A stretch of 64,000 nt of DNA from the NCBI GenBank assembly GCA_045863195.1, contig BTUI01000009.1, positions 51,951-115,950 on the forward strand. The letters are read 5' to 3'. Position numbers and translations under genes: made by a program. Source of the stretch: Chloroflexota bacterium (lineage in GTDB: Bacteria; Chloroflexota; Dehalococcoidia; UBA2979). The notes below the pieces were generated by a model that was given only the letters and a program-made list of their open reading frames with translations, was not told the DNA's origin and ran no database searches. Below are positions 27,240-52,836 of the stretch, in pieces. Position 1 is the stretch's first letter. Each line of letters opens with the position of its first letter.

Positions 27240-27315
27240 CACGGTTCGGGGCCGCCGAGGCCCCACCCCGCCGACTGGCCCGATGCATCTGTTCGTGACC
27301 CACGGGAGGCGCAAC

Positions 27316-27657
27316 GTGCCCCGCTACGACTACCGCTGCGAAGCCGGACATAAGTACGAACTGACCGAGCCGTTCGGCTCGCCGGCCCAGCATCCCTGCA
27401 AGAAGTGCGGCAAGCCCGCGCTCCGCGTCCTCGTCGCGCCGCCGCTCGTCTTCAAGGCCGGCGGCTACTACAAGACCGAGAGCCGTGGCGGCTTCACCCG
27501 CTCCGACCGGGATGACACCCCCTCCGAGTCCACCTCGAAGGCGAAACCGAAGGCCGAGAAGGCGCCGAAGGCCGAACAGGCCGAGAAGCCGGCCGCGAAG
27601 GCTGAGAAGGCGGCCAAGCCCGCGAAGCCGGCCAAGCCCGCCGCCTCCGCGGACTAG
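27316..27657 (+). CDS. FmdB-family zinc-ribbon protein with a Lys/Ala/Pro-rich histone-H1-like C-terminal tail
   Basis: [21 protein letters not shown] (CxxC-like ribbon). GGGAGG lies 7 nt before the GTG. Tail: [39 protein letters not shown]. Confidence 0.65.
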
Positions 27658-27667
27658 CCCCGCCCCG

Positions 27668-28129
27668 ATGCGCGCGGTCGTCCAGCGGGTCGCCCGCGCA
27701 CGCGTCACGGTGGAGGGCGAGACGACCGGCGAGATCGGCCCCGGGCTCCTCGTCTACCTCGGCATCGGGCCGGGGGACGGCCCTCGCGAGGTCGAGTGGG
27801 CCGCCCGCAAGGTCGCCGAGATGCGCATCTTCCCGGACGAGGCCGGCCGCTTCGACCGCTCCGTCGAGGAGACCGGCGGCGCGGTGCTCGTCGTCTCGCA
27901 GTTCACGCTCTACGCCGACACCCGCAAGGGGCGCCGCCCCGCCTTTACCGACGCCGCGCCGCCCGAGGTGGCGGCGCCGCTCGTCGAGGCGGTGATCGGG
28001 GCGCTGCGCGCGCGCGGGCTACCGGTGGAGGGCGGTCGCTTCGGCGCCCACATGCTCGTGGACGCCGTGAATGACGGCCCGGTCACGATCATGCTCGACT
28101 CGACCGACCTCGACCGCCCGCGGGGCTAG
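27668..28129 (+). CDS. dtd: D-aminoacyl-tRNA deacylase
   Basis: MRAVVQRV..; SQFTL..D; ..GPVT..; 153 aa. Confidence 0.9.
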
Positions 28130-28680
28130 CGTCCGATCGGCTGCGCCGGGTCGATAAACAGCGCGAGCCCGCGCGACACCACGTCCTGCACGCGGTCGGC
28201 GGTCACCCACGCGTCCGCGTCCTCGGTGGTGTCGAGGACGGCGCCGGGCATGGAGGCGGCACGCACCGCGCCCGTGATCTCGGCGTGCACCTCCCGCACG
28301 CGGTCCGGGATCGAGTGGTCGCGCAGCGCGTCGCGTCGCAACGTCTCCTCGATGCTCGGGAGCAGCGTGACCAGGTGGACCGGCACGCCGATGCCGTGCA
28401 GCGCCGTGTAGTAGTGCTCGATCGCCGGGCCGAGGATGACGTCCGTGATCACCACCGCGTACCGCATCGCGATGCTCTCGCGAGCGATGGCGGAGGCGTT
28501 GCGGACGGCAAGCTCCAACTGCTCCTCCGCCTGGTGGTCGCCCGCCCACGGGTGGCGGTAGCCAGCCTTCACCCAGTGGCGGAGGTGGTCCACCTCGACG
28601 TGGATCATCCGGTCGAAGCGCTCGCAGAGCGCTTCCGCCACGGAGGACTTGCCGGAACCCGGCGGGCCGGAGATGAGCAT
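28126..28680 (-). CDS. P-loop NTPase/kinase (AAA_33 / zeta-toxin / CPT-like small kinase) translationally coupled to nadC
   Basis: Walker [10 protein letters not shown]. 184 aa. The start is 8 nt after the nadC stop, or an alternative GTG overlaps it. Confidence 0.6.
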
Positions 28681-28688
28681 CACCTGGT

Positions 28689-29579
28689 TCACGCGGGCCG
28701 GACCTCCAGCGACAGGTCGAGGGCGGGTGCGGAGTGCGTGAGCGCGCCGCACGAGATCAGGTCTACGCCGGTGGCGGCGACCTCCTTGATCGTGTCGAGG
28801 GTGATCCCGCCGGACGCCTCGAAGAGCACGCGCGCGTAGGCGGGGTTCGCGCGCGCCTCCGTCACGATGCCGCGCATCATGTCGGGCGTCATGTTGTCCA
28901 GCAGGATGACGTCCGCGCCGCCTTCCAGCGCCTCGCGCGCCATCTCCGGCGTCGTCACCTCGATCTCGATGCGCAGCGTGTGCGGCACCCGCTGGCGCAC
29001 CTCCGCGAGGAGCACGCGGATGCCGACGCCGCGCGCCGCGGCGGCGGCGAGGTGGTTGTCCTTGATCAGCACGCCGTCCTCGAGGGTGTTGCGGTGGTTG
29101 GCCGCGCCGCCCGTCCGCACGGCGTACCGCTCCAGCGCGCGCAGGCCGGGCGTGGTCTTCCGCGTGTCCACCACGCGCGCCGGGCCGCCATCGCGCGCCT
29201 TGTCCTGGTACTGCTGCGCGAGCGTGGCGATGCCGGACATGCGCTGCACGAGGTTCAACGCCACGCGCTCGGCGGAGAGGATCGCCGCGAGCGGGCCGGC
29301 GATCTCCGCGACCGTCATCCCGGCCTTCACCCACTGCCCCTCGTCGACGAGGAGTTCCACCTCCACGTCCGGGGAGACCTGCGCGAACGCCTCCGCGAAC
29401 ACCACCAGGCCGCAGATCACGCCGGACTGCTTCATCAGCAGCGTCGCCTCGCCCGGCTGGTCAGGCGGCACGGTCGCGCGGGTCGTGACGTCGAACCCGA
29501 CGCGGTCCTCCGCGAGGGCCAGCGCGACGATCTCGGCGACCGTCTCGGTGGCGGGGTGGTGCGGATTCTCGTCGGTCAT
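28689..29579 (-). CDS. nadC: nicotinate-nucleotide diphosphorylase (carboxylating)
   Basis: QPRTase fold; ..LLDNM..; 296 aa. Confidence 0.9.
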   Translation of the reverse strand: MTDENPHHPATETVAEIVALALAEDRVGFDVTTRATVPPDQPGEATLLMKQSGVICGLVVFAEAFAQVSPDVEVELLVDEGQWVKAGMTVAEIAGPLAAILSAERVALNLVQRMSGIATLAQQYQDKARDGGPARVVDTRKTTPGLRALERYAVRTGGAANHRNTLEDGVLIKDNHLAAAAARGVGIRVLLAEVRQRVPHTLRIEIEVTTPEMAREALEGGADVILLDNMTPDMMRGIVTEARANPAYARVLFEASGGITLDTIKEVAATGVDLISCGALTHSAPALDLSLEVRPA

Positions 29580-29589
29580 GTGCGTGCTC

Positions 29590-31152
29590 CTACGCCGGGC
29601 GGCCGGCGTCCTTGCGGAAGACGATGTGGCGACGCCACGCCTCGCGCGGCTCCGGGAAGTCGGTGCGGTAGTGCGCCCCGCGCGATTCCTCGCGCATCAA
29701 CGCGGCCTCCGAGGCCAGTCGAGCGCAGGTGATGATCGAGCGCAACTCGTAGCCCTCGCGGTCGGTCGGGCGGGGGACGGAGGCGGCCCAGCGGCGGAGC
29801 GTGGCGACGGCGCGCGTGAGGCTCTCCGCGCTCCGCACGATGCCCACGTCCTGCCACATCAGTTCCTTCACCTCGGCGGCCTGGGGGACGTGCCCGTCCG
29901 GCGTGAGCGGGAGCAGTTCGATGGCGTCTGCGGACCGGACAGGTGGCGGCGGGACGGGCTGGGGCGGGTTCAGCAGGCGCTCCACGGCCCGGTGCGCGAA
30001 CACGATCGTCTCGAGGAGCGAGTTGCTCGCGAGGCGGTTCGCGCCGTGGACGCCCGTGCAGGCCGCCTCGCCCACCACGTAGAGGCCGGGCAGCGTCGTC
30101 TCGCCCCAGGTGTTCGTGCGCACGCCACCCATCGTGTAGTGCGCGGCCGGTGAGACGGGCACGCGGTCGCGCGCCATGTCCAGGCCCGCTTCGAGGCACT
30201 TCGCGTAGATCTGAGGGAAGCGCGCGGCCAGCCAGCCCTCGTCGCGGTCGGTGATGTCCAGCAGGACGTGGTCCGCGCCCGTCTCCGCCATCTCACGCAC
30301 GGCGGCGCGCGCGACCACATCGCGCGGGGCGAGTTCGGCGCGCTCGCGGTCGTACTTCGTCATGAAGCGCTCGCCGCGCGTGTTGAAGAGCAGCGCGCCC
30401 TCACCGCGCACCGCCTCCGAGATCAGGAACACCGGCCTCCCCGGGATCACGAGGGCGGTCGGGTGGAATTGCGTGAACTCCATGTCCACGACCTCCGCGC
30501 CCGCCTCGTAGGCGATCGCGACACCGTCGCCGGTCGAGATCGGAGGGTTCGTGGTGGTGCGGTAGATCTGGCCCGCTCCGCCGGTGGCGAGGACGACCGT
30601 GCGCGCGGTGAAGATGCGGTGCTCGCCCGTGGTGCGCGTGAACACCTCCACGCCCGCGATCCGCCCGTCCTCCACCAGCAGCCGGTCCGCGAGGGTGTGT
30701 TCGAGGATCACGACCTCGCGCTGGGCGAGTGAGGAGAGCGAGAGTTCGATCTCCAGCCCGGTCGCGTCGCCGCGTGCGTGCAGGATGCGGGAGCGCGAAT
30801 GCGCCGCCTCGCGGCCCAGAGACACCTCGCCGTTCGTCGAGTCGAACTGCACCCCGTAGCGCACGAGGTCGGCGATGCGGTCGGCAGCCTCCTCCACGAG
30901 GATGCGCGCCGCCTCCTCGTTCACCAGGCCGGCGCCGGCCTCGATCGTGTCGTTGAGGTGGAAGGCGGGCGAGTCGCCGTCCCCGACGGCGGCGGCGATA
31001 CCGCCCTGGGCGTAGCGGGTGCTCGCCTCGCCGATGCCGGCCTTGGTGACGACGAGGACGCTGGCGCCCGACTCCTTCGCCTGGATCGCCGCGTACAGCC
31101 CGGCGATGCCGGAGCCGACGACGATGAGGTCGTAGTCGGAACGGCTGGTCAT
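29590..31152 (-). CDS. nadB: L-aspartate oxidase
   Basis: DLIVVGSGIAGL FAD motif; ..RYAQGGIAA..; 520 aa. Confidence 0.9.
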   Translation of the reverse strand: MTSRSDYDLIVVGSGIAGLYAAIQAKESGASVLVVTKAGIGEASTRYAQGGIAAAVGDGDSPAFHLNDTIEAGAGLVNEEAARILVEEAADRIADLVRYGVQFDSTNGEVSLGREAAHSRSRILHARGDATGLEIELSLSSLAQREVVILEHTLADRLLVEDGRIAGVEVFTRTTGEHRIFTARTVVLATGGAGQIYRTTTNPPISTGDGVAIAYEAGAEVVDMEFTQFHPTALVIPGRPVFLISEAVRGEGALLFNTRGERFMTKYDRERAELAPRDVVARAAVREMAETGADHVLLDITDRDEGWLAARFPQIYAKCLEAGLDMARDRVPVSPAAHYTMGGVRTNTWGETTLPGLYVVGEAACTGVHGANRLASNSLLETIVFAHRAVERLLNPPQPVPPPPVRSADAIELLPLTPDGHVPQAAEVKELMWQDVGIVRSAESLTRAVATLRRWAASVPRPTDREGYELRSIITCARLASEAALMREESRGAHYRTDFPEPREAWRRHIVFRKDAGRPA

Positions 31153-31607
31153 GACCGCTCGGTCCGTGCCGGTTCGGCCTCGAACACCTCGACCTCGGCC
31201 TCGAACGACTGAATGGCGCGCACGATGGCGTCCCAGTCGGCCGGCGTCTCCGGGCGGCCCGTGCTCGCGTTCAGGTAGGCGTAGCGGTGTGTGAACTGTG
31301 CCACCGTGCGGCCGTCGCTCGCCGCCAGCACCTCGCAGGCGAAGGTGAGGCGGCCCGGCCGCACCTCGGTGCAGCGGAGGCGCACGACCGCCGCGTCATC
31401 CCAGCGCAGCGGCGAGCGGTAGCGCACCTCGGACGAGACCTGGAAGCGCAGGACGTCGCGGTGGCTGGGGATGCCGGCCTCGCGGTCGTACGCGTCGAGG
31501 GCGATCTCGGTGAGCGCCAGCAGCACGCCGCCGTGCACGAACGGGGTGCCGCCGAAGGAGTCGGTGTGGCGGAGGGGGTAGCGCCCCTCGAAGCGGAACT
31601 CGGGCAT
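31149..31607 (-). CDS. hotdog-fold acyl-CoA thioesterase (4HBT/YbgC-like) embedded in the nad operon
   Basis: ..FVHGGVLLALTEIAL..; 152 aa. ATGA overlap with nadB. Confidence 0.6.
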   Translation of the reverse strand: MPEFRFEGRYPLRHTDSFGGTPFVHGGVLLALTEIALDAYDREAGIPSHRDVLRFQVSSEVRYRSPLRWDDAAVVRLRCTEVRPGRLTFACEVLAASDGRTVAQFTHRYAYLNASTGRPETPADWDAIVRAIQSFEAEVEVFEAEPARTERS

Positions 31608-31647: not shown

Positions 31648-32865
31648 CTACTTCAGCGCGAGCATCCGGTCGAGCGCGACCTTCGCGTCCCGGCGGTGGT
31701 GCTCCGGCACCTGCAGCCGGTTCACCACGTGCCCCTCCACGAGTGCCTCCAGCACCCACGCGAGGTAGGCGGGGTGGACGCGGTACATCGTGCTGCACGG
31801 GCAGACGACGGGGTCCAGGCAGAACACGGTCTTGTCCGGGTGCTCCTTCGCCAGGCGGGAGACCAGGTTGATCTCCGTGCCCACGCCGATCACGGAGCCC
31901 GGCGGCGCCTGCTCGATGTACTTCACGATGTAGCCGGTGGAGCCGTTCGCGTCCGCCGCCTGCACCACGTCATACCGGCACTCCGGGTGGACGACGATCT
32001 TTACGTCCGGGTTGGCGGCGCGGGCCTGCTCGATCTGCTGCACCGTGAAGCGCTGGTGCACGGAGCAGTGGCCCTGCCACAGGATGATGCGGGAGCGCTC
32101 CAGCGCCTCGGCGGACGCGCCGCCGAGGTTCCCGGCGGGCATCCGCCAGTTCCAGAGCACCATCTCCTCCAGCGGGATGCCCATCGCGTGGCCGGTGTTA
32201 CGGCCCAGGTGCTGGTCCGGGAAGAAGAAGACGCGCTTGCCGCGCTCGAACGCCCAGTCCAGCACCTTGGTCGCGTTGGAGGAGGTACAGACCACGCCGC
32301 CGTTGGCCCCGCAGAACGCCTTCAGGCTGGCGGCGGAGTTCATATAGGTGACGGGGATGACGTCCTCGGTGGTGCCGAAGAACTCCTTGAGTTCCGCCCA
32401 GGCGCGGTGGACATCCGGCTCGGCGGCCATGTCCGCCATCGAACAGCCGGCGGCCATGTTCGGCAGGATCACCTGCTGGTGGTCGGCGCGGAGCACGTCC
32501 GCGGCCTCCGCCATGAAGTGCACGCCACAGAATACGATGAACTCGGACTCGCCCCGGTTCGCGGCGTACTGCGCCAGCTGGAAGGAGTCCCCGCGCTCGT
32601 CCGCGAAGGCGATGATGTCCTCGCGCTGGTAGTGGTGGCCGAGGATCACGACCCGCTCGCCGAGCGTGGCCCGCGCAGCGTGGATCCGCCGCGTCAGTTC
32701 GTCCGCGCCGAGGTCCATGTACGCCTCGGGGATGTCGTTCTGCCAGGAGCGGAACGCGACCTCCTCGCTCAGCGGGATGGTGGCGATGCCGGTGTCGGTC
32801 TCGCACTGCAACTGGGCGATGGGGTAGCGGTCCGCCGTGAGGGCGATGGTGCTGCTCGGTGCCAT
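31648..32865 (-). CDS. nadA: quinolinate synthase NadA (long type)
   Basis: ..VVILGHHYQ..FCGVHFMAE..VVHPEC.. with Cys ligands. GAGGTGG RBS before the ATG at 32865. The track ORF is 27 codons longer. Confidence 0.9.
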   Translation of the reverse strand: MAPSSTIALTADRYPIAQLQCETDTGIATIPLSEEVAFRSWQNDIPEAYMDLGADELTRRIHAARATLGERVVILGHHYQREDIIAFADERGDSFQLAQYAANRGESEFIVFCGVHFMAEAADVLRADHQQVILPNMAAGCSMADMAAEPDVHRAWAELKEFFGTTEDVIPVTYMNSAASLKAFCGANGGVVCTSSNATKVLDWAFERGKRVFFFPDQHLGRNTGHAMGIPLEEMVLWNWRMPAGNLGGASAEALERSRIILWQGHCSVHQRFTVQQIEQARAANPDVKIVVHPECRYDVVQAADANGSTGYIVKYIEQAPPGSVIGVGTEINLVSRLAKEHPDKTVFCLDPVVCPCSTMYRVHPAYLAWVLEALVEGHVVNRLQVPEHHRRDAKVALDRMLALK

Positions 32866-32926: not shown

Positions 32927-32954
32927 TTTGCGTATCTAGTACGCAAACTGGTTT
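32927..32954. promoter_or_regulatory. AT-rich 21-bp palindrome TTTGCGTA-TCTAG-TACGCAAA plus overlapping CAAAC-TG-GTTTG dyad upstream of nadA (candidate NrtR operator)
   Basis: Perfect 8-bp arms, 70-90 nt upstream of the nadA ATG, in an otherwise GC-rich spacer. The only copy in the window. Confidence 0.5.
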
Positions 32955-32985
32955 GTGTTCACCTTACGCTCAGCCCCCGGGGGTG

Positions 32986-34308
32986 TCAACGCGCGCCCGG
33001 CGTCTCCTCGGGCGGTGCGGGCGGCGGCAACGGACGTGCGAGGAGCACGACCGCCGCGGCGACGAGCGTGATGCTGGCGGTGATGGTGAAGGAGGTGGTG
33101 TAGGAGCCGGTGCGGTCGTCCAGCAGGCCGATCGCGAACGGCCCGAAGCCGGACGACATCTGCCCGACCATGCTGATGATCCCGAACACCGCGCCGAACG
33201 ACACCACGCCGTAGATCTCGCTCACCAGCAACGACTGCATCATGTAGACGTTCCCAATGGTCATGCCGAAGAGCAGGATGAACAGGTAGGTCGCCCACGC
33301 GCTCTCCACGCGCAGCACCAGCAAGACCGCGACCGCCTGCACCACGAACACGCCCACCGTCAGCCAGCGCTTGTCCATCTCGTCCGCCACCACCCCCATC
33401 GCCAGCCGCGCGACGATGCTGCCGAACGCGGTGATCGAGAGCGCCCGCGCCGCCGCGCTCTGCGAGCCGAGGCGCTCCTCCAGGAACGCGATCTGGTGGA
33501 TGACGAACCCTGTCTGCGCCATCAGCACGAGCGCGAACGCCACGATGATCGCCCAGAACGGCACCGTCGCCATCGCCTGCCGGAGCGTCCACTTGCGTCG
33601 CTGGGTCGCCTCGCCCAGCGCGGAGTTCTGAGGGCGCTTCGCGAGCGCCTCCTCCTCGCTGCGGTCGCCGTCCGGGAGCATCCCCACGTCCCGCGGGTCG
33701 AAGACGAGCACCCAGATCACGATCGGGATCGTCACGAGGAACACCAGCGAGCCGAGCACCGGGGTGGCGAGCGCGAGCCCGCCCCGTTCCACGAGCGCGG
33801 CGCCGAGCGGCGCGAGGATCACACCACCCCAGGAGACGCCGGTGCTGGAGACGCTCATCGCCCGCGCGCGGCGGCGGATAAACCAGCGCGACATGATCGC
33901 GTTGATCGCCACGCCGGAGGCGAACCCGGAGCCGAGCGCGAGCGTGATGTAGACCGCGTACAACTGCCACAACGCGTCCACGTACCCGACCGAGGCAGCC
34001 GTGATGCCGATCAGCGTGAAGCCGATCAACTGGAACCGCTTCGGCCCGTACTTGTCGATCTGCGGGCCGATCAGCGCCGTCCACACCCCCGACATCACGA
34101 AGTACATCGAGGTCGCGCCGGAGACGGCCGCGTTCGACCAGCCGTGCTCCTCCTGTAGCGGCTTCAGGAACACCGCCAGGCCGTAGTAGCCGACCCCCGC
34201 CGTCACCATCCCCATCACCGCCGCCGCCACGGCGATGTTCCAGCCGTAGAAGTAGCGCTTCGGCAGCAACCGCACGCCGAGGGGGAGGCGGGACGGGGCG
34301 ACGCTCAC
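32986..34308 (-). CDS. MFS transporter (possible NiaP-like niacin/NAD-precursor permease by context)
   Basis: 12-TM MFS topology. The GTG start forms a GTGA overlap with the LLM gene stop. The 715-aa track ORF is a read-through artefact. Confidence 0.7.
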   Translation of the reverse strand: MSVAPSRLPLGVRLLPKRYFYGWNIAVAAAVMGMVTAGVGYYGLAVFLKPLQEEHGWSNAAVSGATSMYFVMSGVWTALIGPQIDKYGPKRFQLIGFTLIGITAASVGYVDALWQLYAVYITLALGSGFASGVAINAIMSRWFIRRRARAMSVSSTGVSWGGVILAPLGAALVERGGLALATPVLGSLVFLVTIPIVIWVLVFDPRDVGMLPDGDRSEEEALAKRPQNSALGEATQRRKWTLRQAMATVPFWAIIVAFALVLMAQTGFVIHQIAFLEERLGSQSAAARALSITAFGSIVARLAMGVVADEMDKRWLTVGVFVVQAVAVLLVLRVESAWATYLFILLFGMTIGNVYMMQSLLVSEIYGVVSFGAVFGIISMVGQMSSGFGPFAIGLLDDRTGSYTTSFTITASITLVAAAVVLLARPLPPPAPPEETPGAR

Positions 34309-35234
34309 CGGGCACCGCCGTGTCGCGCCTGCAGCGCGGGGATGACGTCTGTCGCCACGCGCGTGAGTTGCATCAGCCGGTCGCCGCCGGCGAAGACGAT
34401 GTTGATGTGACGGACGCCCGCATCGATGAACTCGCCGAGGCGCTCCATCCACATGCCGGCGTCGCCGTAGACCGTGTACCGCTCGAAGCGGTCGAACGGG
34501 ACGCGATAGGTGCTCTCGATGCGGGCCGCGATCGTCGGCAGCGCCTCGGCGAGGTCGTCGTCGAACTGGCCCCACAACTGCAACGCTGGGCGGATGGCGT
34601 CCGGGTCGCGGCCGAGGGCGGCCGCCTGCTCGCGCACGTTCGCCCAGCCCTCCGCGAACCGCTCCGGGGTGATGACGAAGGGCATCCAGGCGTCGCCGTA
34701 CCGCGCCGCGCGGCGCTGCGCCGCCGGAGCGCGGCCGCCGACCCACACGGGGATGCGCGGCTCCGGCACCAGGTCCAGGCGCGCCTCGGTCACGTCGATC
34801 TGGCGATTGTGGAGCGTGACCGGCTCGCCCGACCAGAGCGCGGCGAGCGCCTCCAGCGTCTCGTCCAGCGCGCGCCCGCGCTCCGCCAGCGGCACCCCAG
34901 ACGCCTCGAACTCCTTCGCGTACTCGCCGCCGACGCCGACGCCGAGGCGGAAGCGGCCGCCGGACATCCACTGGAGCGTCGCCGTCTCCTTCGCGAGCGG
35001 CGCGGGGCGGCGCAGCGCCGCCAGCAGCACACCCGTGCCGAGGCCGATCCGCTCGGTCACGGCGCTGGCGGCGGCCAGCATCGTGAGCGGCGCCGGCCAG
35101 AAGACCGGCCAGAGCACGTGGTCGCCGACCCACGCGGAGTCGTACCCCAGCGCCTCCGCCGTCTGCACGGCGGCGAGGAACTCCTGCGGGGTGCTACCGC
35201 CCGGGAGGACGCCAAAGGTGAGGTCGTGAGGCAT
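34305..35234 (-). CDS. LLM-class (luciferase-like) F420/flavin-dependent oxidoreductase
   Basis: ..LGYDSAWVGDH.. TIM-barrel LLM signature; 309 aa. Confidence 0.75.
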   Translation of the reverse strand: MPHDLTFGVLPGGSTPQEFLAAVQTAEALGYDSAWVGDHVLWPVFWPAPLTMLAAASAVTERIGLGTGVLLAALRRPAPLAKETATLQWMSGGRFRLGVGVGGEYAKEFEASGVPLAERGRALDETLEALAALWSGEPVTLHNRQIDVTEARLDLVPEPRIPVWVGGRAPAAQRRAARYGDAWMPFVITPERFAEGWANVREQAAALGRDPDAIRPALQLWGQFDDDLAEALPTIAARIESTYRVPFDRFERYTVYGDAGMWMERLGEFIDAGVRHINIVFAGGDRLMQLTRVATDVIPALQARHGGAR

Positions 35235-35272
35235 CGCGCGAGTCTACCGGACGCCGGTCAACCGTGGCCCGG

Positions 35273-35944
35273 CTACAGGAAGACGGGCTCGCGGCTGGCG
35301 AAGCGGTAGAGCGTGGCGGGGCGGTGCGCGCCTTCGCGCCGGGTTTCCCCGGTCGCCTCGATCAGTCCGGTGGAGAGCATGCGCTTGCGGAAGTTGCGGC
35401 GGTCCAGGTCTTCGCGCAGCACCGCCTCGTACGCGGTCTGGAGTTCGCGCAGCGTGAACTGCTCCGGCAGCAGGCCGTAGGCGATGTTGGTGTAGTCCAG
35501 TTTCGCGCCCACGCGCCGCACGGCCTGGTCGATCACGCGGTTGTTGTCGAACGCAAGCGGAGGGAGGTCGTCCACCGCGTGCCACGCCGGCCGCCACGCC
35601 TCCTCCTGCCGCAGCCGCACCTTCGCCGCCTCCACCAGCGCGAAGTAGGCGACCGCCACCGAGGGCTGCCGGGGGTCGAGGCCGGAGGTCGTGAACAGCT
35701 GCTCGAGGTACAGGTCTGCCACGCCGGTCTCCCGCACCAGGTTGCGGTGCGCGGCCTGCTCCAGCGACTCGTCGCCGCGCCAGCGGCCGCCGGGGAGCGC
35801 CCAGCGCTCCCGCTCCGGCTCCGCGGAGCGGTGCACGAGCAGCACCTGCAGCCGCTCTCCGATCACCGCGAGGATGACGACGATCGTCGCGACCACGGGC
35901 GTGCCGTCAGGGCCGTCGGGCGAAGTGCGGCGGGCGGGTGCCAT
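35273..35944 (-). CDS. nrtR: Nudix-domain transcriptional regulator, NrtR-like (Nudix + C-terminal winged HTH)
   Basis: Degenerate Nudix box LPGGRWRGDESLEQAAHRNLVRETGV. C-terminus ..FTLRELQTAYEAVLREDLDRRNFRKRMLSTGLIEATGE..RPATLYRF matches the NrtR DNA-binding domain as I remember it. Confidence 0.6.
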   Translation of the reverse strand: MAPARRTSPDGPDGTPVVATIVVILAVIGERLQVLLVHRSAEPERERWALPGGRWRGDESLEQAAHRNLVRETGVADLYLEQLFTTSGLDPRQPSVAVAYFALVEAAKVRLRQEEAWRPAWHAVDDLPPLAFDNNRVIDQAVRRVGAKLDYTNIAYGLLPEQFTLRELQTAYEAVLREDLDRRNFRKRMLSTGLIEATGETRREGAHRPATLYRFASREPVFL

Positions 35945-35968: not shown

Positions 35969-37285
35969 CTACAGGACGGCGAGCGCCAGGTCGCCGGCCA
36001 GGTGGCCCTGCAGCGACCATGGCGTGACCTGCGAGATGGTCACGTCCACCAGTTCGCCCAGCCGGCCGCGCCCGTCGAAGTGGACGATCTGGCCGCGGCG
36101 CGTGCGCCCGCTGGCGCGACCCTCCTCCTCGCGCTCCACGAGCACCTCCACGGTGCGCCCGAGGAGCGCCTGGTTGATGCGGTCGGAGGAGGCGCGGTGG
36201 ATGCCTTCGACCACCTGCAGGCGCTGCTTCTTCACCTCGGCAGGCACGTCGTCCGCGAGGTGGCGGGAGGCGTAGGTGCCGGGGCGCGGCGAGTAGGCCG
36301 CCACGTGCACCGTGTCGAACTGGATGCGCTCCAGGAGGTCCACGGTCGCCTGGAACTCCGCCTCCGTCTCGCCGGGGCACCCGACGATGACGTCCGTGAC
36401 GATCGCCGCGTCCGGCATCCGGCTGCGGATGCGCGCCACGCGATCCTCGAAGTCCGCCACGGTGTATCCGCGGCGCATCCGCTCCAGCATGGAGTCGGAG
36501 CCGGACTGCACCGGGATGTTGAAGTACTCGCACACCTTCGGCTGGTCGGCCACGGCGTCGATGATGCGGTCGGTCATGTCCTTCGGGTAGGAGGTCAGGA
36601 AGCGGACGCGCGTGATCCCGTCGATCGCGTCGATGCCCTCGAACAGCGTCGCGAGGTCGGGGCGGTCTGGCAGGTCGTGGCCGTACGCCTCCACGGTCTG
36701 GCCGAGGAGCGTGATCTCGCGCACGCCGTGCCCGGCGAGGAACCGCACCTCGTCCAGGATGTCGGCGGCGGGTCGGGACGCCTCGCGTCCGCGGCGGAGC
36801 GGGACGATGCAGTAGGTGCAGAACTTGTCGCAGCCGTGGATCACCGGCACGTATGCCGTGGGGCCGGTCGGTAGGCCGTAGGTGTTGCGCATCCCGCCAC
36901 CGACGAGCGCGCCGAGTTCGCCGCCGGACACGTCCCGCGCCTCGGCGGCCATCGAGAGGATGCCGTCGAACTCCTGAGGGCGGGCCCACACGTCCACGTA
37001 CGGGAAGCGCTTGCGGAGGTCGTCCGTCTTCGGGCCGACCATGCAGCCCATCACCACGATCTTCTGCTGTGCGCCCTCGGTGCGGCGCTTCCGCAGGATG
37101 CCGAGGCGGGAGTAGGCGCGGTCCTCCGCGTGCTGGCGGACGGAGCAGGTGTTGATCACCACCACGTCCGCCTCCGTGTCCTCGTCCACGGCGCGGTAGC
37201 CCAGCCGCTCCAGGCCGGCGGCGAGTTTGAGGGAGTCGGCCTGGTTCATCTGGCAGCCAAGCGTCCAGATGTGGAAGGTGGACAC
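35969..37285 (-). CDS. miaB: tRNA methylthiotransferase MiaB (radical SAM, TRAM domain)
   Basis: ..WTLGCQMNQADS.. and CTYCIVP radical-SAM cluster; 438 aa. Confidence 0.85.
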   Translation of the reverse strand: MSTFHIWTLGCQMNQADSLKLAAGLERLGYRAVDEDTEADVVVINTCSVRQHAEDRAYSRLGILRKRRTEGAQQKIVVMGCMVGPKTDDLRKRFPYVDVWARPQEFDGILSMAAEARDVSGGELGALVGGGMRNTYGLPTGPTAYVPVIHGCDKFCTYCIVPLRRGREASRPAADILDEVRFLAGHGVREITLLGQTVEAYGHDLPDRPDLATLFEGIDAIDGITRVRFLTSYPKDMTDRIIDAVADQPKVCEYFNIPVQSGSDSMLERMRRGYTVADFEDRVARIRSRMPDAAIVTDVIVGCPGETEAEFQATVDLLERIQFDTVHVAAYSPRPGTYASRHLADDVPAEVKKQRLQVVEGIHRASSDRINQALLGRTVEVLVEREEEGRASGRTRRGQIVHFDGRGRLGELVDVTISQVTPWSLQGHLAGDLALAVL

Positions 37286-37355: not shown

Positions 37356-37447
37356 TGGCGGAGGGGGAGGGATTCGAACCCTCGGTCCCGGAAACCCGAG
37401 ACAAGCGCTTAGCAGGCGCCCGCACTAGACCACTATGCGACCCCTCC
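37356..37447 (-). tRNA. tRNA-Ser (anticodon GCU), long variable arm, CCA encoded
   Basis: Manual fold: acceptor GGAGGGG/CCCCUCC, anticodon stem GGCGC/GCGCU, loop CUGCUAA, 6-bp variable-arm stem, T-arm GAGGG-UUCGAAU-CCCUC. Confidence 0.85.
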
Positions 37448-37852: not shown

Positions 37853-38123
37853 CGGGACGCCTCCGCTCCACGAAGGAGGCGAACGCCACCGTCCCGCAGA
37901 ACGCGACGAGGGCCACCGCCAGCGCCACGTCCAGCATGGTGGGGTCGTCGTTCTCCAGCGCCATCAGCGCCGCCCCCGCGACCGTCACCGCGGCGATCAC
38001 CTCGAGCGCGATCACCCGGTCGAGGAGGCTCTTCGCCTTCAGCAGGAACGCGACCGACCCCAGCAGCGCGGCCACCGTCACCGCCTCCACCGCGATCAGG
38101 AGGGCGTCCGTGATCGCGGTCAT
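37845..38123 (-). CDS. mrpF: Na+/H+ antiporter subunit F
   Basis: 92 aa, 3 TM. Confidence 0.8.
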   Translation of the reverse strand: MTAITDALLIAVEAVTVAALLGSVAFLLKAKSLLDRVIALEVIAAVTVAGAALMALENDDPTMLDVALAVALVAFCGTVAFASFVERRRPDD

Positions 38124-38596
38124 CGCACCGCCTCCAGCACCCGCCGCACGATGCCGTTCTGGATCTCGCTCCGGGCTGCCTCCACGTCCCCGTCCGGCAG
38201 GTTCGTCAGATGCACCACCATCGCGCCGTCACGGGCGACCTCGAGCACGGTCGATCCGGGCGTCACGGTGATGAACGCGACCACGAGCACGCGCTCCAGG
38301 TCCGTCCGTGCGTCGGTGGGGAGGACGATGATCGCGGAGTGCAGTCGCGTCCCCCGGACCAGGTCACGCGTGACGCGCAGGTTGGCCCGCCACACGTCCA
38401 TGAGGAAGAACGCCGCCAGCGCGAGGATCGTCCAGGTCCGCCGGGAGTAGCCGGGCACGCCCGGCACGCTCCGCACGAGCGAGAGCGCGACGAAGCCGGC
38501 CACGAGCCCCGCGCCGAAGTTGAGCGGGGTGAACGATCCGGTGATCGCCGTCCACAGCAGGGCCAGCAGGATGTTGGCGATCGCGGCGTTGTTCAT
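38120..38596 (-). CDS. mrpE: Na+/H+ antiporter subunit E
   Basis: MNNAAIANILLALLWTAI..; 158 aa. ATGA overlap with mrpD. Confidence 0.8.
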   Translation of the reverse strand: MNNAAIANILLALLWTAITGSFTPLNFGAGLVAGFVALSLVRSVPGVPGYSRRTWTILALAAFFLMDVWRANLRVTRDLVRGTRLHSAIIVLPTDARTDLERVLVVAFITVTPGSTVLEVARDGAMVVHLTNLPDGDVEAARSEIQNGIVRRVLEAVR

Positions 38597-40080
38597 GGCG
38601 CGCGGCTCCCGAGGACGGCCTCGACGTACGCGGCGGGCGACGCGATCGCCGCCCCGGCCTCCACCGCCATCTCCACCAGTGGCGCGCCGACGATCCCCAT
38701 GCCGGCGCTCACCAGCGCGAGCGCCGCGCCCGGCAGCAGGAAGCGCCGCGCGGGCTGCTGCCACGTCTCGCCCTCCGGGGCGACCTTCCAGAACGCCTCG
38801 GTCCAGATCTTCACCATCGAGAGCAGCGTCAGCAGGCTCACCGCTAGCGAGACGCCGACGAGGAGCCACGCCTCCGACTCCACGCCGGCGCGCGCCAGCG
38901 TGAACTTCGCGATGAACCCGGCGAACGGCGGGATGCCGGCCAGCGCGAAGGCCGCGACGAGGAACACCGCCGCCGTTGGCGCGTCCTGCCGGTAGAGGCC
39001 ACCGAGGCGCCTCAACTGCCCTGTCCCTGCGCCGCGCTCGATGAACCCGGCCACCAGGAAGAGCGCGGTCTTCGTGATCATGTGCTGCATCATGTAGAAC
39101 GTCGCGCCGGCCAGCGCGAGCGGCGTCGTCAGGCCGATGCCCATCAGCATGTAGCCCACCTGGCTTGAGATGTGGAACGAGAGCAGCCGCCGCAGTTCGT
39201 ACTGCGCGAGCGCGCCCAGCACACCCACCACCATGGTGAGCCCGGCGATGACGAGCACGGCGGTGCGGACCGCCTCGTCGCCCGGGAAGAGCAACGTCAC
39301 CGTCCGCGCGACCGCGTATACGCCGACCTTCGTGAGCAAGCCGGAGAACAGCGCCGACACGTCCGTGCCGGGGGTGTGGTAGGAGGCCGGCAGCCACGCG
39401 GCGAACGGGAACGCCGCCGACTTCGTGATGAACGCGCCGAGGAGCAACAGCGCCAGCGCCAGCACCAGGGCGCGGTTCTCCACCAGCGCGAGGCGCTCGG
39501 ACAGGTCGGCGAAGTTCAGCGTCCCGGCGAGCGCGTACGCGAGGCCGGCGCCGACGAGGAAGGTGGCGGACGCGATCAGGTTCAGCGTCACGTACACCGC
39601 TGCCCCGCGCGCCTGCCTCGGTGCGTGGCCGACCGAGAGCAGGACGAAGGAGGCGATCAGCATCACCTCGAACGCCACATAGAGGTTGAACAGGTCGCCG
39701 GTCAGGAACGCCGCCGCCACCGCCGCGAGCAGGACGTTCGTGAAGACGAAGTAGCCGTGGCCCGACCGTTCGGCCTCCACGTGCATGGCGGCGAATGCGA
39801 GGGAGGCGAGGCCGGCGACGGCGCCCGCGAGCAGGACGAGCGCGGCGAACTGGTCGGCGACGAGCGAGATGCCGAACGGGGCGGGCCAGTCGCCGGCCTG
39901 CAGGACCAGCGTGCCGTGCGTGTTCACCTGCCGCAGGAGCATGACCGCGGCGAGCGTCTGCACGACCGCCCCTGCCAGCCCGGCCGCCACCTGCACGCGG
40001 TGGCGCGACATGAACGGGATCGCCGCCGCCGCGGCCACCAGCGGCCCGCCGAGGGCGAGGAGCAGCCATGTCCCGGTCAT
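38593..40080 (-). CDS. mrpD: Na+/H+ antiporter subunit D (NuoN/ND2-like)
   Basis: 495 aa, 14 TM, complex-I antiporter-like subunit. Confidence 0.85.
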   Translation of the reverse strand: MTGTWLLLALGGPLVAAAAAIPFMSRHRVQVAAGLAGAVVQTLAAVMLLRQVNTHGTLVLQAGDWPAPFGISLVADQFAALVLLAGAVAGLASLAFAAMHVEAERSGHGYFVFTNVLLAAVAAAFLTGDLFNLYVAFEVMLIASFVLLSVGHAPRQARGAAVYVTLNLIASATFLVGAGLAYALAGTLNFADLSERLALVENRALVLALALLLLGAFITKSAAFPFAAWLPASYHTPGTDVSALFSGLLTKVGVYAVARTVTLLFPGDEAVRTAVLVIAGLTMVVGVLGALAQYELRRLLSFHISSQVGYMLMGIGLTTPLALAGATFYMMQHMITKTALFLVAGFIERGAGTGQLRRLGGLYRQDAPTAAVFLVAAFALAGIPPFAGFIAKFTLARAGVESEAWLLVGVSLAVSLLTLLSMVKIWTEAFWKVAPEGETWQQPARRFLLPGAALALVSAGMGIVGAPLVEMAVEAGAAIASPAAYVEAVLGSRAP

Positions 40081-40433
40081 CGCGCGGCCTCCTCGGTGTC
40101 CGGGATCGCATCCACGTCGTCCGAGCCGGTGAGGCGGTACACGCGGTAGGAGAGCGTGATGAAGAACGCGAGCAGGCCGAAGCCGATCACGATCGCAGTC
40201 AGAATCAGCGCCTGCGGGACCGGATCGGCGGCGTCAGACGGCGGGATCACCTCGCCGGCCCGCACCAGCGGCGCGGGGCCGTCGCCGAGGCCGGCGGCGA
40301 CGAAGATGAACAGGTTCGCGGCGTTCGAGAGCAGCGCGAGGCCGATGATCGCCTGCCCGCGCGAGCGCTGCAGCAGGAGATAGATCGCGCACCCGAACAG
40401 CAGGCCAATGACCGGGGCGAAGAGCGCTTCCAT
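40077..40433 (-). CDS. mrpC: Na+/H+ antiporter subunit C (NuoK-like)
   Basis: [21 protein letters not shown]..; 118 aa. Confidence 0.8.
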   Translation of the reverse strand: MEALFAPVIGLLFGCAIYLLLQRSRGQAIIGLALLSNAANLFIFVAAGLGDGPAPLVRAGEVIPPSDAADPVPQALILTAIVIGFGLLAFFITLSYRVYRLTGSDDVDAIPDTEEAAR

Positions 40434-52746: not shown

Positions 52747-52836
52747 TGGCGGAGGGGGTGGGATTCGAACCCACGGGCCCCTCGCGGGGCCGGTCGTTTT
52801 CAAGACGACTGCGTTCAACCGCTCCGCCACCCCTCC
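52747..52836 (-). tRNA. tRNA-Ser (anticodon UGA), long variable arm, CCA encoded
   Basis: Manual fold: acceptor GGAGGGG; anticodon stem GUCGU/ACGAC with loop CUUGAAA; variable-arm stem GGCCCC/GGGGCC; T-arm GUGGGUUCGAAUCCCAC. Confidence 0.8.

Follow-up and report, generated by a model that had tools for sequence, protein, structure and literature searches.

A P-loop kinase gene is linked to nadC in about 90 loci, which fall into five deep clades, and stands last in the NAD operon of uncultured Chloroflexota genomes; this linkage is the new, comparative result reported here. Because the same operon-last position recurs in about 90 other Chloroflexota genomes, the kinase makes a promising candidate for a step, or a point of control, not yet described in NAD (or PRPP) metabolism. 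The reading we tentatively prefer, without claiming that it outweighs the alternatives together, is that of an active ribosyl 5'-OH kinase, made as the last coupled cistron of an NrtR-repressed nad operon and serving the NadC step. The de novo NAD pathway is taken to be completely mapped, and here an extra kinase is bound to nadC under candidate NrtR control in a large, mostly uncultured phylum, with a sister kinase within the trp operon. Our search of the literature on BH3686/Atu3015, on nadC-linked P-loop kinases and on NrtR regulons found no description of the gene or its family. The window analyzed is a stretch of 64,000 nucleotides (64 kb) from a Dehalococcoidia genome (contig BTUI01000009.1).

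The kinase gene and its operon

The operon lies on the minus strand in the order nadA–4HBT–nadB–nadC–kinase, and its features, together with the convergent neighbour, are:

27668..28129 (+): dtd (D-aminoacyl-tRNA deacylase), convergent with the kinase
28126..28692 (-): P-loop kinase coding sequence (protein GMU41117.1), 188 aa plus stop; GTG start, TAG stop
28689..28692 (-): GTGA junction of kinase start and nadC stop, GTG 28692-28690 overlapping the nadC TGA 28691-28689
28703..28707 (-): GGAGG Shine-Dalgarno-like element, 10 nt 5' of the GTG, within the 3' end of nadC
28689..29579 (-): nadC (quinolinate phosphoribosyltransferase), 296 aa; Pfam QRPTase_N and QRPTase_C; TIGR00078 306 bits vs 198
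29590..31152 (-): nadB (L-aspartate oxidase), 520 aa; start overlaps the 4HBT stop (ATGA)
31149..31607 (-): 4HBT/hotdog thioesterase-like gene between nadA and nadB, 152 aa; Pfam 4HBT_2 and 4HBT
31648..32865 (-): nadA (quinolinate synthase), likely ATG at 32865 with GAGG 6 nt upstream

The kinase reading frame is a genuine gene rather than a chance open frame in high-GC DNA, as four observations confirm: a search at E ≤ 1e-3 yields 268 homologues, the best of them 96% identical; the frame has diverged from three orthologues by 0.34-0.37 at codon position 3 but by 0.05-0.14 at positions 1 and 2; its GC3 of 0.95 is similar to that of the neighbouring genes; and its AlphaFold2 model has a pLDDT of 90.7. 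A first-pass annotation, made from the letters of the window, had placed an open reading frame here, and it is borne out on the minus strand with 188 codons and with the Walker A motif GPPGSGKS at residues 9-16 of the frame 28692..28126. That annotation had offered two starts, one within 8 nt of the nadC stop and one at an upstream, overlapping GTG, and both exist as described. The ATG at 28680, 8 nt beyond the nadC stop, gives 184 aa and, unlike the GTG, has no GGAGG-type site upstream. We take the GTG as the true start, because orthologues align from M-N-Q at this codon, because the overlap with the nadC stop recurs among them, and because GGAGG lies 10 nt upstream of it. The GTGA overlap also supports the earlier suggestion that the two genes are translationally coupled, a coupling predicted here from the overlapping start and stop. 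At the other end of the gene, the stop codons of the kinase and dtd share CTAG at 28126-28129, so that the operon ends without intergenic space. A terminator-like hairpin at 28161-28174 (-) was dismissed, as it lies within the kinase coding sequence and is poor in its T-tract.

The operon had been annotated as nadA-nadB-nadC; these genes are all present, but the description was incomplete, since it lacked the 4HBT gene between nadA and nadB. This gene, whose product has no NCBIfam match, is found in 33 of 66 related loci. It is one of the other odd passengers seen in biosynthetic operons of these genomes, together with an Rce1-like gene in trp. From nadA to the kinase, the five genes are separated by overlaps or short gaps throughout, and a consensus scan found no promoter-like site inside the operon, from which we infer that the kinase is co-transcribed with nadA-nadC. 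The surroundings of the operon showed no PnuC-type riboside transporter.

A candidate NrtR operator

Upstream of nadA we find the following elements:

35273..35944 (-): nrtR, with Nudix and NrtR winged-helix domains, 223 aa; NrtR_WHD 8e-27 and NUDIX (Pfam)
32927..32947 (no strand): candidate NrtR operator, a perfect 21-bp palindrome TTTGCGTA-N5-TACGCAAA with a GT-N7-AC core
32952..32972 (no strand): second, weaker NrtR-like box of 13.7 bits, 25 nt from the main box and overlapping a -10-like hexamer
32961..32989 (-): tentative promoter-like element, TTGACA at 32989-32984, a 17-nt spacer and TAAGGT at 32966-32961

The nrtR gene lies 2.4 kb upstream of the operon on the same strand; its product scores 151 bits against NCBIfam NF050029, below the cut-off of 400. 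The candidate operator is 62 nt upstream of the nadA ATG (an alternative nadA frame from a TTG at 32946 would cross it), and is the sole match to the palindrome in the window, where 0.01 would be expected by chance. The tandem layout of the two boxes is also seen in many related loci. In the promoter-like element, the -35 hexamer TTGACA overlaps the stop codon of the upstream MFS gene, the -10 hexamer matches at only 3 of 6 positions, and the element failed a stricter consensus scan. Rfam models, run over the whole window, returned two tRNAs only, and thus no NAD riboswitch or leader before nadA.

The operator consensus TTTGCGTA-N5-TACGCAAA was derived here from sequence alone, and the site fits the NrtR motif description of Rodionov et al. 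(2008; PMC2330246). A position weight matrix scan of 939 kb, comprising 72 loci and the window, gave 72 NrtR-box matches of at least 14 bits, and every one of them was at the 5' end of nadA or, in split operons, at the 5' end of 4HBT/nadB. Another clade carries a diverged yet perfect palindrome, TTAGTGTAC-N3-GTACACTAA, upstream of nadB-nadC-kinase; the putative box tracks the operon across loci and clades. Where an insert separates the kinase from nadC, no box was found directly 5' of the kinase. We thus find both hallmarks of an NrtR regulon, in that the genome carries nrtR and the transcription unit is preceded by a palindromic 21-bp operator with a GT-N7-AC core, and we would expect NrtR to control the operon in vivo. 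The NAD operons described by Rodionov et al. (2008; PMC2330246), among them the NrtR-regulated nadC-nadA-nadB operon of Roseiflexus (Chloroflexi), likewise combine nrtR with a GT-N7-AC palindrome before de novo NAD genes. Those regulons, however, contain neither a P-loop kinase nor a 4HBT gene, both of which are fixed members of the Chloroflexota transcription unit here.

Conservation of the nadC linkage

The first-pass annotation had proposed a link between the kinase and the nad genes, and a gene-neighbourhood survey upholds it, with the same conserved NrtR-type operator. The five nadC-linked clades are 34–45% identical to the window kinase. Taking one genome per species, all 66 genome loci have nadC upstream of the kinase and on its strand, and so do all six loci of the P0129 clade. 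The gap between the two genes is at most 200 nt in 57 of these 72 loci; start and stop overlap (ATGA, GTGA or TAGTG) in 22, and a further 21 have a gap of 0-30 nt. In a metagenome scan, nadC was upstream in 13 of roughly 17 informative loci of the P0132 clade and in both of two further loci that belong to the window's own clade; the adjacency is also found in the P0127 and P0144 clades. It persists where the dtd-rpsB-tsf synteny and even nadA have been lost. Exceptions do occur: another gene stands between nadC and the kinase in 15 of the 72 loci (in L027 and L054, one encoded on the opposite strand), and a few family members (L084, L095) are away from nadC altogether.

Distant homologues have other surroundings. 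Those found by tblastn on plasmids of Bacillus and Streptomyces are less than 35% identical, are labelled 'AAA family ATPase' and lie in unrelated accessory contexts; one on a Streptomyces chromosome lies in a sugar-ABC/phosphodiesterase/GntR cluster, and the P0464 homologue has no NAD context. The nad linkage is therefore a trait of the Chloroflexota clades and not of the superfamily as a whole. Since all labelled members are Chloroflexota, it may also have its source in inherited gene order.

This bears directly on the best surviving alternative, which we nonetheless consider unlikely: that the kinase is a passenger with a non-NAD function, such as detoxification of xenobiotics or antibiotics (like CPT, TmrD or Gar) or a general nucleotide-kinase role, which uses the operon's promoter and stays behind nadC because compact genomes seldom rearrange. 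Slow rearrangement fits poorly with five clades at 34-45% identity that keep this adjacency while every other neighbour changes, and with a 4-nt start/stop overlap kept in 22 of 72 loci. Typical resistance genes also evolve fast, whereas within a clade the kinase and NadC change at similarly slow rates (57-83% identity where NadC has 57-87%, across related loci). Finally, a passenger would not be expected to have a paralogue fixed in a second biosynthetic operon, as described below.

Kinase family, trp-operon paralogue and candidate functions

The kinase had been described from its motif as AAA_33/zeta/CPT-like. The profile search supports an AAA_33/CPT-like fold: Pfam AAA_33 (PF13671) scores 42.7 bits against a cut-off of 27, aligning residues 4-133 to profile positions 1-130 of 143, and also matches 25 of 25 orthologues, while CPT (PF07931) aligns over the full length with 23.4 bits against a cut-off of 22. 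Zeta_toxin (PF06414), at 27.6 bits, is above its cut-off but covers only residues 4-41 (profile 18-58 of 199), and AAA_28 (PF13521), at 24.5 bits against 27, covers only residues 6-33, so that both reflect the P-loop alone. None of the best 25 NCBIfam matches reaches its cut-off, the first being PRK06762 with 24 bits against 258, and the NadR family is absent among them. Membership of the gluconokinase or shikimate kinase families, with no nad linkage elsewhere, was the outcome that the first-pass annotation had held against its own reading. The gluconokinase model TIGR01313 scores 14.3 bits against 113.75 and covers only the P-loop, no shikimate kinase model is among the best 25 NCBIfam or Pfam matches, and the linkage recurs. 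PADLOC gave P-loop matches only, so the kinase does not belong to a defence system.

The model has the three layers of an NMP-kinase-like fold, with Walker A, a Walker-B-like Asp and lid arginines. Its nearest relatives by both sequence and structure are Atu3015 from Agrobacterium (PDB 1zp6) and BH3686 from Bacillus (PDB 2bdt), two structural-genomics P-loop proteins that are 24-25% identical to it, share the motif G-x-x-x-P-W after strand 2 and, unlike the nadC-linked kinase, have no known nad linkage. The kinase thus belongs to the functionally uncharacterised Atu3015/BH3686 branch of AAA_33/CPT-like kinases. The titles under which the two structures were deposited, 'putative cytidylate kinase' for one and 'putative gluconate kinase' for the other, are conjectural. 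The nadC-linked clades and the trp-linked paralogue have in common, among other residues, R25, R28, H31, R38, G44, P48, Q58, D84, R120 and R124; the P0132 clade has Ser or Gly in place of Asp35. G-x-x-x-P-W, a candidate acceptor loop, and other conserved residues also occur in family members from unrelated contexts, and no NAD-specific signature was found among the conserved residues. CPT (PDB 1grq/1qhx) is 17% identical and differs in that Asp35 is not kept in all nadC-linked clades; it is the self-resistance enzyme of an antibiotic producer, whereas the kinase is a slowly evolving core gene of an NAD operon without an antibiotic cluster, a context that argues against chloramphenicol phosphorylation.

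The paralogue is a fusion with an N-terminal Nudix-like domain, found in Dehalococcoidia trp operons in the order trpE-[Nudix-kinase]-trpG-trpD in five of five loci. The fusions are 41-100% identical to each other and are embedded in the operon by start/stop overlaps, including one with trpG. Their kinase domain is 37-45% identical to the nadC-linked kinase and has the same conserved residues, but the fusion lies between trpE and trpG without an NrtR box, whereas the nadC-linked kinase follows nadC under one. The Nudix box has degenerated, with RELEAR, RVLEDS or REVERL in place of REUxEE, suggesting that the domain serves for binding rather than hydrolysis. Against the window's NrtR, BLASTP aligned only 40 residues of this domain (E 1e-4), and PDB sequence and Foldseek searches returned generic MutT/YmfB/RppH-type proteins, with no ADP-ribose-specific tie. 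NadC and TrpD both use PRPP and each makes a 5-phosphoribosyl adduct, so the two kinases share a setting, a biosynthetic operon with a PRPP-dependent phosphoribosyltransferase.

We consider it probable that the kinase is functionally tied to NAD or phosphoribosyl metabolism. From its fold and conserved residues we infer catalytic activity, as an ATP-dependent small-molecule phosphotransferase with an NMP-kinase-like P-loop. Encoded by the translationally coupled final cistron of a nadA-4HBT-nadB-nadC-kinase transcript under NrtR repression, it would be made in amounts that parallel NadC, and would rise when NAD turnover (ADP-ribose) relieves NrtR repression. It would phosphorylate the 5'-hydroxyl of a ribosyl compound of the NadC step, the most likely reaction being that of nicotinate or nicotinamide riboside to NaMN or NMN, by which a salvaged or accidentally dephosphorylated riboside would join the pool filled by NadC. 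The NadR ribosylnicotinamide kinase domain (AAA_28) and eukaryotic Nrk1 are P-loop kinases that convert ribosides to NMN or NaMN; by analogy such an activity, in line with the NR/NMN salvage that the first-pass annotation had suggested as one possibility, is our best guess, and it would fit naturally within an NAD regulon. That the substrate is specifically a pyridine riboside is nevertheless doubtful when taken as a claim of its own, and the trp paralogue may point to shared PRPP/phosphoribosyl chemistry as much as to pyridines. A wider and still rather speculative proposal is that the nadC-linked kinases and the Nudix-fused trp paralogues form a new family for phosphoribosyl-transfer steps. 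Its members might be 5'-kinases that restore NaMN, or in the paralogue phosphoribosyl-anthranilate, from dephosphorylated ribosides; or they might provide a second, Prs-independent PRPP route beside PRPP-consuming enzymes. Either version, if true, would bring a reaction not yet described into each of two textbook pathways, in a large uncultured phylum.

A pyridine-riboside kinase would be a third, non-homologous type of bacterial NR/NaR kinase, and a ribose-phosphate kinase would mean local PRPP supply for phosphoribosyltransferases. Either way, the Atu3015/BH3686 group, whose two members of solved structure have been without a role since 2005, would gain a function, and metabolic models of Dehalococcoidia-type Chloroflexota would improve. 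Because the kinase is small, confidently predicted and easily expressed, the question of its substrate is directly testable.

The PRPP branch may also be considered in its own right, and as such we rate it slightly below the passenger reading: the kinase would phosphorylate a ribose phosphate (ribose 1,5-bisphosphate to PRPP, like PhnN, or for ribose 5-phosphate supply), and the paralogues would stand beside NadC and TrpD so as to guarantee these enzymes their co-substrate. Two paralogous lineages in two operons, whose obvious common feature is the PRPP-dependent phosphoribosyltransferase, speak for it, and a Nudix fold binds nucleoside-diphosphate-X and ribose-diphosphate ligands, in keeping with a degenerate, binding-type domain in the fusions. 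Elsewhere, prs itself belongs to NrtR regulons (PMC2330246). However, the basis is just two operon types, and the paralogue adjoins trpE and trpG, not trpD directly. PhnN is of the guanylate-kinase branch, with no PhnN model among the NCBIfam matches listed; the best structural relatives are hydroxyl kinases and not phosphate-acceptor kinases; and the Nudix domain resembles the generic MutT/YmfB type and shows no particular link to ADP-ribose or PRPP. Nearly all organisms have a PRPP synthetase (Prs), so that there is no need for a second route.

Start/stop overlaps commonly mark subunits produced at fixed ratios, and the Nudix domain of the fusion that overlaps trpG is probably a non-catalytic sensor, like NrtR. 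The kinase could then be a regulatory or structural partner, a nucleotide-binding protein in a NadC complex (or, for the paralogue, with anthranilate synthase or TrpD) through which NadC activity is tuned by ATP or another nucleotide without phosphorylation of a metabolite. The full catalytic kit is conserved, however, and the protein folds like metabolite kinases that act as monomers or dimers, which makes this improbable. We give still less weight to a 2'/3'-hydroxyl kinase acting on a dinucleotide, either a P-loop NAD(H)/NaAD kinase as a non-orthologous NadK or an AvrRxo1-like enzyme forming 3'-NADP, because the zeta-toxin match is confined to the P-loop and the trp-operon paralogue has no obvious dinucleotide substrate.

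The toxin-like role raised in the first-pass annotation, as a zeta-type toxin or similar kinase, is effectively refuted: the above-cut-off Zeta_toxin score and the PADLOC matches come from the P-loop, nadC on the upstream side and the convergent dtd on the downstream side leave no spare reading frame for an antitoxin-sized partner, and the gene is stable within housekeeping synteny, vertically inherited and of native composition.

The kinase gene and the nad operon

The reading frame at 28126–28692, which the first-pass annotation described as a P-loop kinase gene coupled to nadC, is a real and native gene; its coordinates, fold and junction were all confirmed, with the gene on the minus strand. 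Specifically, the frame 28692..28126 encodes 188 amino acids, with the Walker A motif GPPGSGKS at residues 9–16, and opens at a GTGA junction where its GTG (28692–28690) shares bases with the TGA of nadC (28691–28689). A start giving 184 amino acids had been proposed, and the corresponding ATG does exist at 28680, but the upstream GTG is the start, because GGAGG lies 10 nt 5′ of it, because no element of that type precedes the ATG, and because orthologues line up from codon 1 (M-N-Q-V), many of them with ATGAAC at the nadC junction. The protein has 268 homologues, the closest 96% identical, and against three orthologues the divergence is 0.34–0.37 at codon position 3 and 0.05–0.14 at positions 1 and 2. 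GC3 (0.95) is similar to that of the neighbouring genes, the AlphaFold2 model has a mean pLDDT of 90.7, and the exact sequence is on public record from a Chloroflexota MAG as a ‘hypothetical protein’ (GMU41117.1).

The kinase is the translationally coupled final cistron of a five-gene nad operon, set among the following features.

Features in and around the nad operon
52750–52836 (–): second tRNA gene
38120–43135 (–): Mrp/Mnh-type cation/proton antiporter cluster, upstream of nrtR
37359–37447 (–): tRNA gene, upstream of nrtR
35969–37285 (–): MiaB-type radical-SAM methylthiotransferase, upstream of nrtR
35944–35273 (–): nrtR, Nudix and NrtR winged-helix domains
35234–34305 (–): F420-type luciferase-like oxidoreductase (TIGR03619 family, 185 bits)
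~34300–32986 (–): MFS transporter, lactate/oxalate-formate type
32989–32984 and 32966–32961: promoter-like TTGACA and TAAGGT, 17-nt spacer, between MFS stop and nadA
32952–32972: weak palindromic box, between MFS stop and nadA
32927–32947: perfect 21-bp palindrome TTTGCGTA-N5-TACGCAAA, between MFS stop and nadA
32865–31648 (–): nadA, probable ATG start at 32865
31607–31149 (–): 4HBT thioesterase-like gene, begins 40 nt past nadA stop
31152–29590 (–): nadB, ATGA overlap with 4HBT stop
29579–28689 (–): nadC, begins 10 nt past nadB stop
28692–28126 (–): kinase, GTGA overlap with nadC stop

The 4HBT/hotdog gene between nadA and nadB recurs in 33 of 66 related loci; we know of no step in NAD synthesis that needs a thioesterase. 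At the other end of the operon, the kinase TAG and the stop of the convergent dtd gene both fall within CTAG (28126–28129), so that the two coding regions overlap by 4 nt on this palindrome and neither transcript has space for a terminator between them. Convergent dtd lies downstream of the kinase in 46 of the 66 loci, always accompanied, between kinase and rpsB-tsf, by a gene for a small Zn-ribbon protein (27283–27657, plus strand, in the window; PF09723 below cut-off) with a long Lys/Ala/Pro-rich C-terminal tail. About 35 nt short of its stop, the kinase coding sequence contains a GC hairpin that resembles a terminator (28161–28174, minus strand); its T-tract is poor, and the match is probably due to chance.

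The operon comes with both an nrtR gene and a conserved operator of the NrtR type. Published NrtR operators have 21-bp symmetry and a GT-N7-AC core (PMC2330246), a description that the palindrome at 32927–32947 matches; it is the sole match in the 64 kb with three mismatches allowed, where 0.01 are expected by chance. NrtR would control the kinase together with its operon. The hexamers, read from the sequence, form at best a candidate promoter; the –10 is weak, the element as a whole did not pass a stricter promoter scan, and the 3′ end of the MFS gene falls inside the –35 hexamer. Apart from the two tRNAs, an Rfam scan found no riboswitch or other element. The genes nrtR, oxidoreductase and MFS transporter follow one another in that order on the minus strand (32986–35944), and none of the three is preceded by an NrtR box.

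A position weight matrix built from the palindromes and run over 939 kb, the window and 72 loci together, gave 72 matches of at least 14 bits. They all fall at the 5′ end of either nadA or, in split operons (L019, L022, L040, L049, L053, L069–L071), 4HBT/nadB; the predicted operator tracks the nad operon across loci. In L019, L040, L049 and L053 the box stands directly 5′ of the 4HBT gene. The P0132 clade of homologues has a diverged yet perfect palindrome, TTAGTGTAC-N3-GTACACTAA, directly 5′ of nadB-nadC-kinase (L093, L094, L098, L099). No box directly precedes the kinase in loci with an insert between nadC and kinase.

Linkage of the kinase to nadC

The kinase stays linked to nadC almost without exception, across deeply diverged lineages. 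When 185,579 species, each represented by one genome, were scanned with two peptide patterns taken from the family, 66 loci were recovered. All come from Chloroflexota/Dehalococcoidia MAGs, at 44–83% identity, and every one has nadC 5′ of the kinase in the same orientation. Six more loci, from three look-ups in a second clade (P0129-like, about 40% identical), share this arrangement, and in one of them nrtR directly precedes nadA. From nadC stop to kinase start, these 72 loci divide into overlaps (22), gaps of 0–30 nt (21), gaps of 31–200 nt (14) and gaps above 200 nt with another gene inserted (15). About a fifth thus tolerate an insert. Secreted proteins and a nucleotidyltransferase-like ORF are among the inserted genes, and L027 and L054 have a regulator on the opposite strand.

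A third clade (P0132-like, 35–40% identical) served as the seed for a metagenome scan, which gave 24 loci; here the genes downstream of the kinase are wholly different and dtd is missing. The order nadB-nadC-kinase is found in 13 of the roughly 17 loci of this clade with enough upstream sequence; L102 and L105, which belong to the window's own clade, both have nadC upstream. The clear exceptions are L084 and L095, and L097 and L101 show no nadC match within the 0.7–1.2 kb of upstream sequence present. One look-up each in the P0127 (43%) and P0144 (34%) clades again found nadC-kinase. The adjacency is therefore kept in five lineages diverged to 34–45% identity, while nadA, the 4HBT gene, dtd and all else come and go around it. 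It is no less stable than the nadB-nadC pair; five loci (L032, L058, L059, L060, L063) lack nadB and keep nadA-nadC-kinase, which suggests that nadB is elsewhere or that another enzyme supplies iminoaspartate. Every carrier with a taxonomic label comes from a single phylum.

In the P0129 clade (L069 1570–3353, L070 1575–3353, L071 715–2498, L072 1710–2198) an opposite-strand gene of the RidA/YjgF enamine/imine deaminase family lies between nadA and nadB, which is notable because iminoaspartate, the NadB product, is a reactive imine. Beyond this gene, nadB-nadC-kinase has its own NrtR-like box in L069–L071. The neighbourhood contains a second NAD-related gene, for bifunctional NAD(P)HX repair (YjeF_N + Carb_kinase; L067 8924–10564, L069 and L070 9027–10562), which lies some 2.5 kb downstream of the kinase, beyond dtd, the Zn-ribbon gene, folD and acpS.

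Fold, paralogues and candidate functions

The fold is that of a kinase, and its catalytic apparatus is intact. Pfam AAA_33 covers the core (residues 4–133; 42.7 bits, cut-off 27) and CPT the full length (23.4 bits, cut-off 22). All NCBIfam models fall far short of their cut-offs, and gluconokinase was rejected at 14 bits against 114. The two top structural matches, Atu3015 (PDB 1zp6) and BH3686 (2bdt), are structural-genomics proteins without established function, and a literature search found no paper on either. The kinase looks catalytically competent, because the conserved positions comprise Walker A, D84, R120 and R124 together with R25, R28, H31, R38, G44, P48 and Q58, and every sequence inspected has an acidic residue at 33 or 35 after strand 2. 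The conserved residues are family-wide and not NAD-specific. The protein's neighbours in fold space are mostly hydroxyl-group kinases.

Among 1.84 billion cluster representatives, searched exhaustively with a profile, there are 1,914 relatives, 19 of them with E<1e-30. The nearest outside the nadC-linked clades include Dehalococcoidia fusions of 315–350 amino acids, with an N-terminal Nudix domain, its Nudix box degenerate (REUxEE reads RELEAR, RVLEDS or REVERL), and a C-terminal kinase. The position of this paralogue in trp operons is fixed: all five loci (L073 7001–8005, L074 7001–8041, L076 7001–7984, L077 4887–5870, L078 7001–7942; 41–100% mutual identity) have it between trpE and trpG-trpD-trpC-trpF-trpB-(Rce1-like)-trpA. 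Its stop overlaps the trpG start in L073, and trpG follows without a gap in L078. The gene between trpB and trpA encodes an Rce1-like (CPBP) membrane protease; the trp loci have no NrtR box. A model of the fusion (pLDDT 89) matched only a generic MutT/YmfB-like Nudix domain in a PDB search, from which no ligand could be inferred.

The ranking of functions draws wholly on genomic context, in which the nadC-linked kinases form a new subfamily of a known fold. The nadC linkage lends strong comparative support to the general proposal of an NAD-related kinase, and we lean towards a function tied to NAD or phosphoribosyl metabolism. That the kinase turns over a metabolite, and which one, we infer. 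NadC and TrpD both use PRPP to phosphoribosylate an aromatic acid, the most obvious feature common to the two operons and the basis for two readings, 5′-kinases of ribosyl products or PRPP supply. Tentatively, and as the first-ranked single reading, the kinase may be a ribosyl 5′-OH kinase acting on NaR/NR.

A passenger gene of unrelated function is unlikely given the adjacency across five lineages, even with the inserts that some loci tolerate. More distant relatives occur in unrelated contexts (one on a Streptomyces chromosome, in a sugar-ABC/phosphodiesterase operon, and others as stand-alone genes, annotated ‘AAA family ATPase’, on plasmids of Streptomyces and Alkalihalophilus), so the NAD link is limited to the Chloroflexota clades and does not extend to the whole superfamily. 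A PRPP-branch kinase, the second reading of the shared chemistry, is slightly less likely than the passenger gene. The coupling to nadC could also fit a regulatory ATPase that binds NadC, which we find improbable for a protein with a conserved catalytic apparatus; a 2′/3′-kinase of NAD/NaAD is, with a paralogue in trp operons, more improbable still. The two specific analogies drawn at first fail: AAA_28, the NadR kinase domain family, stays below cut-off (24.5 bits against 27) and touches only the P-loop (residues 6–33), and Zeta_toxin, despite 27.6 bits against 22.3, is likewise confined to the P-loop (residues 4–41), a toxin being the least credible reading by far.
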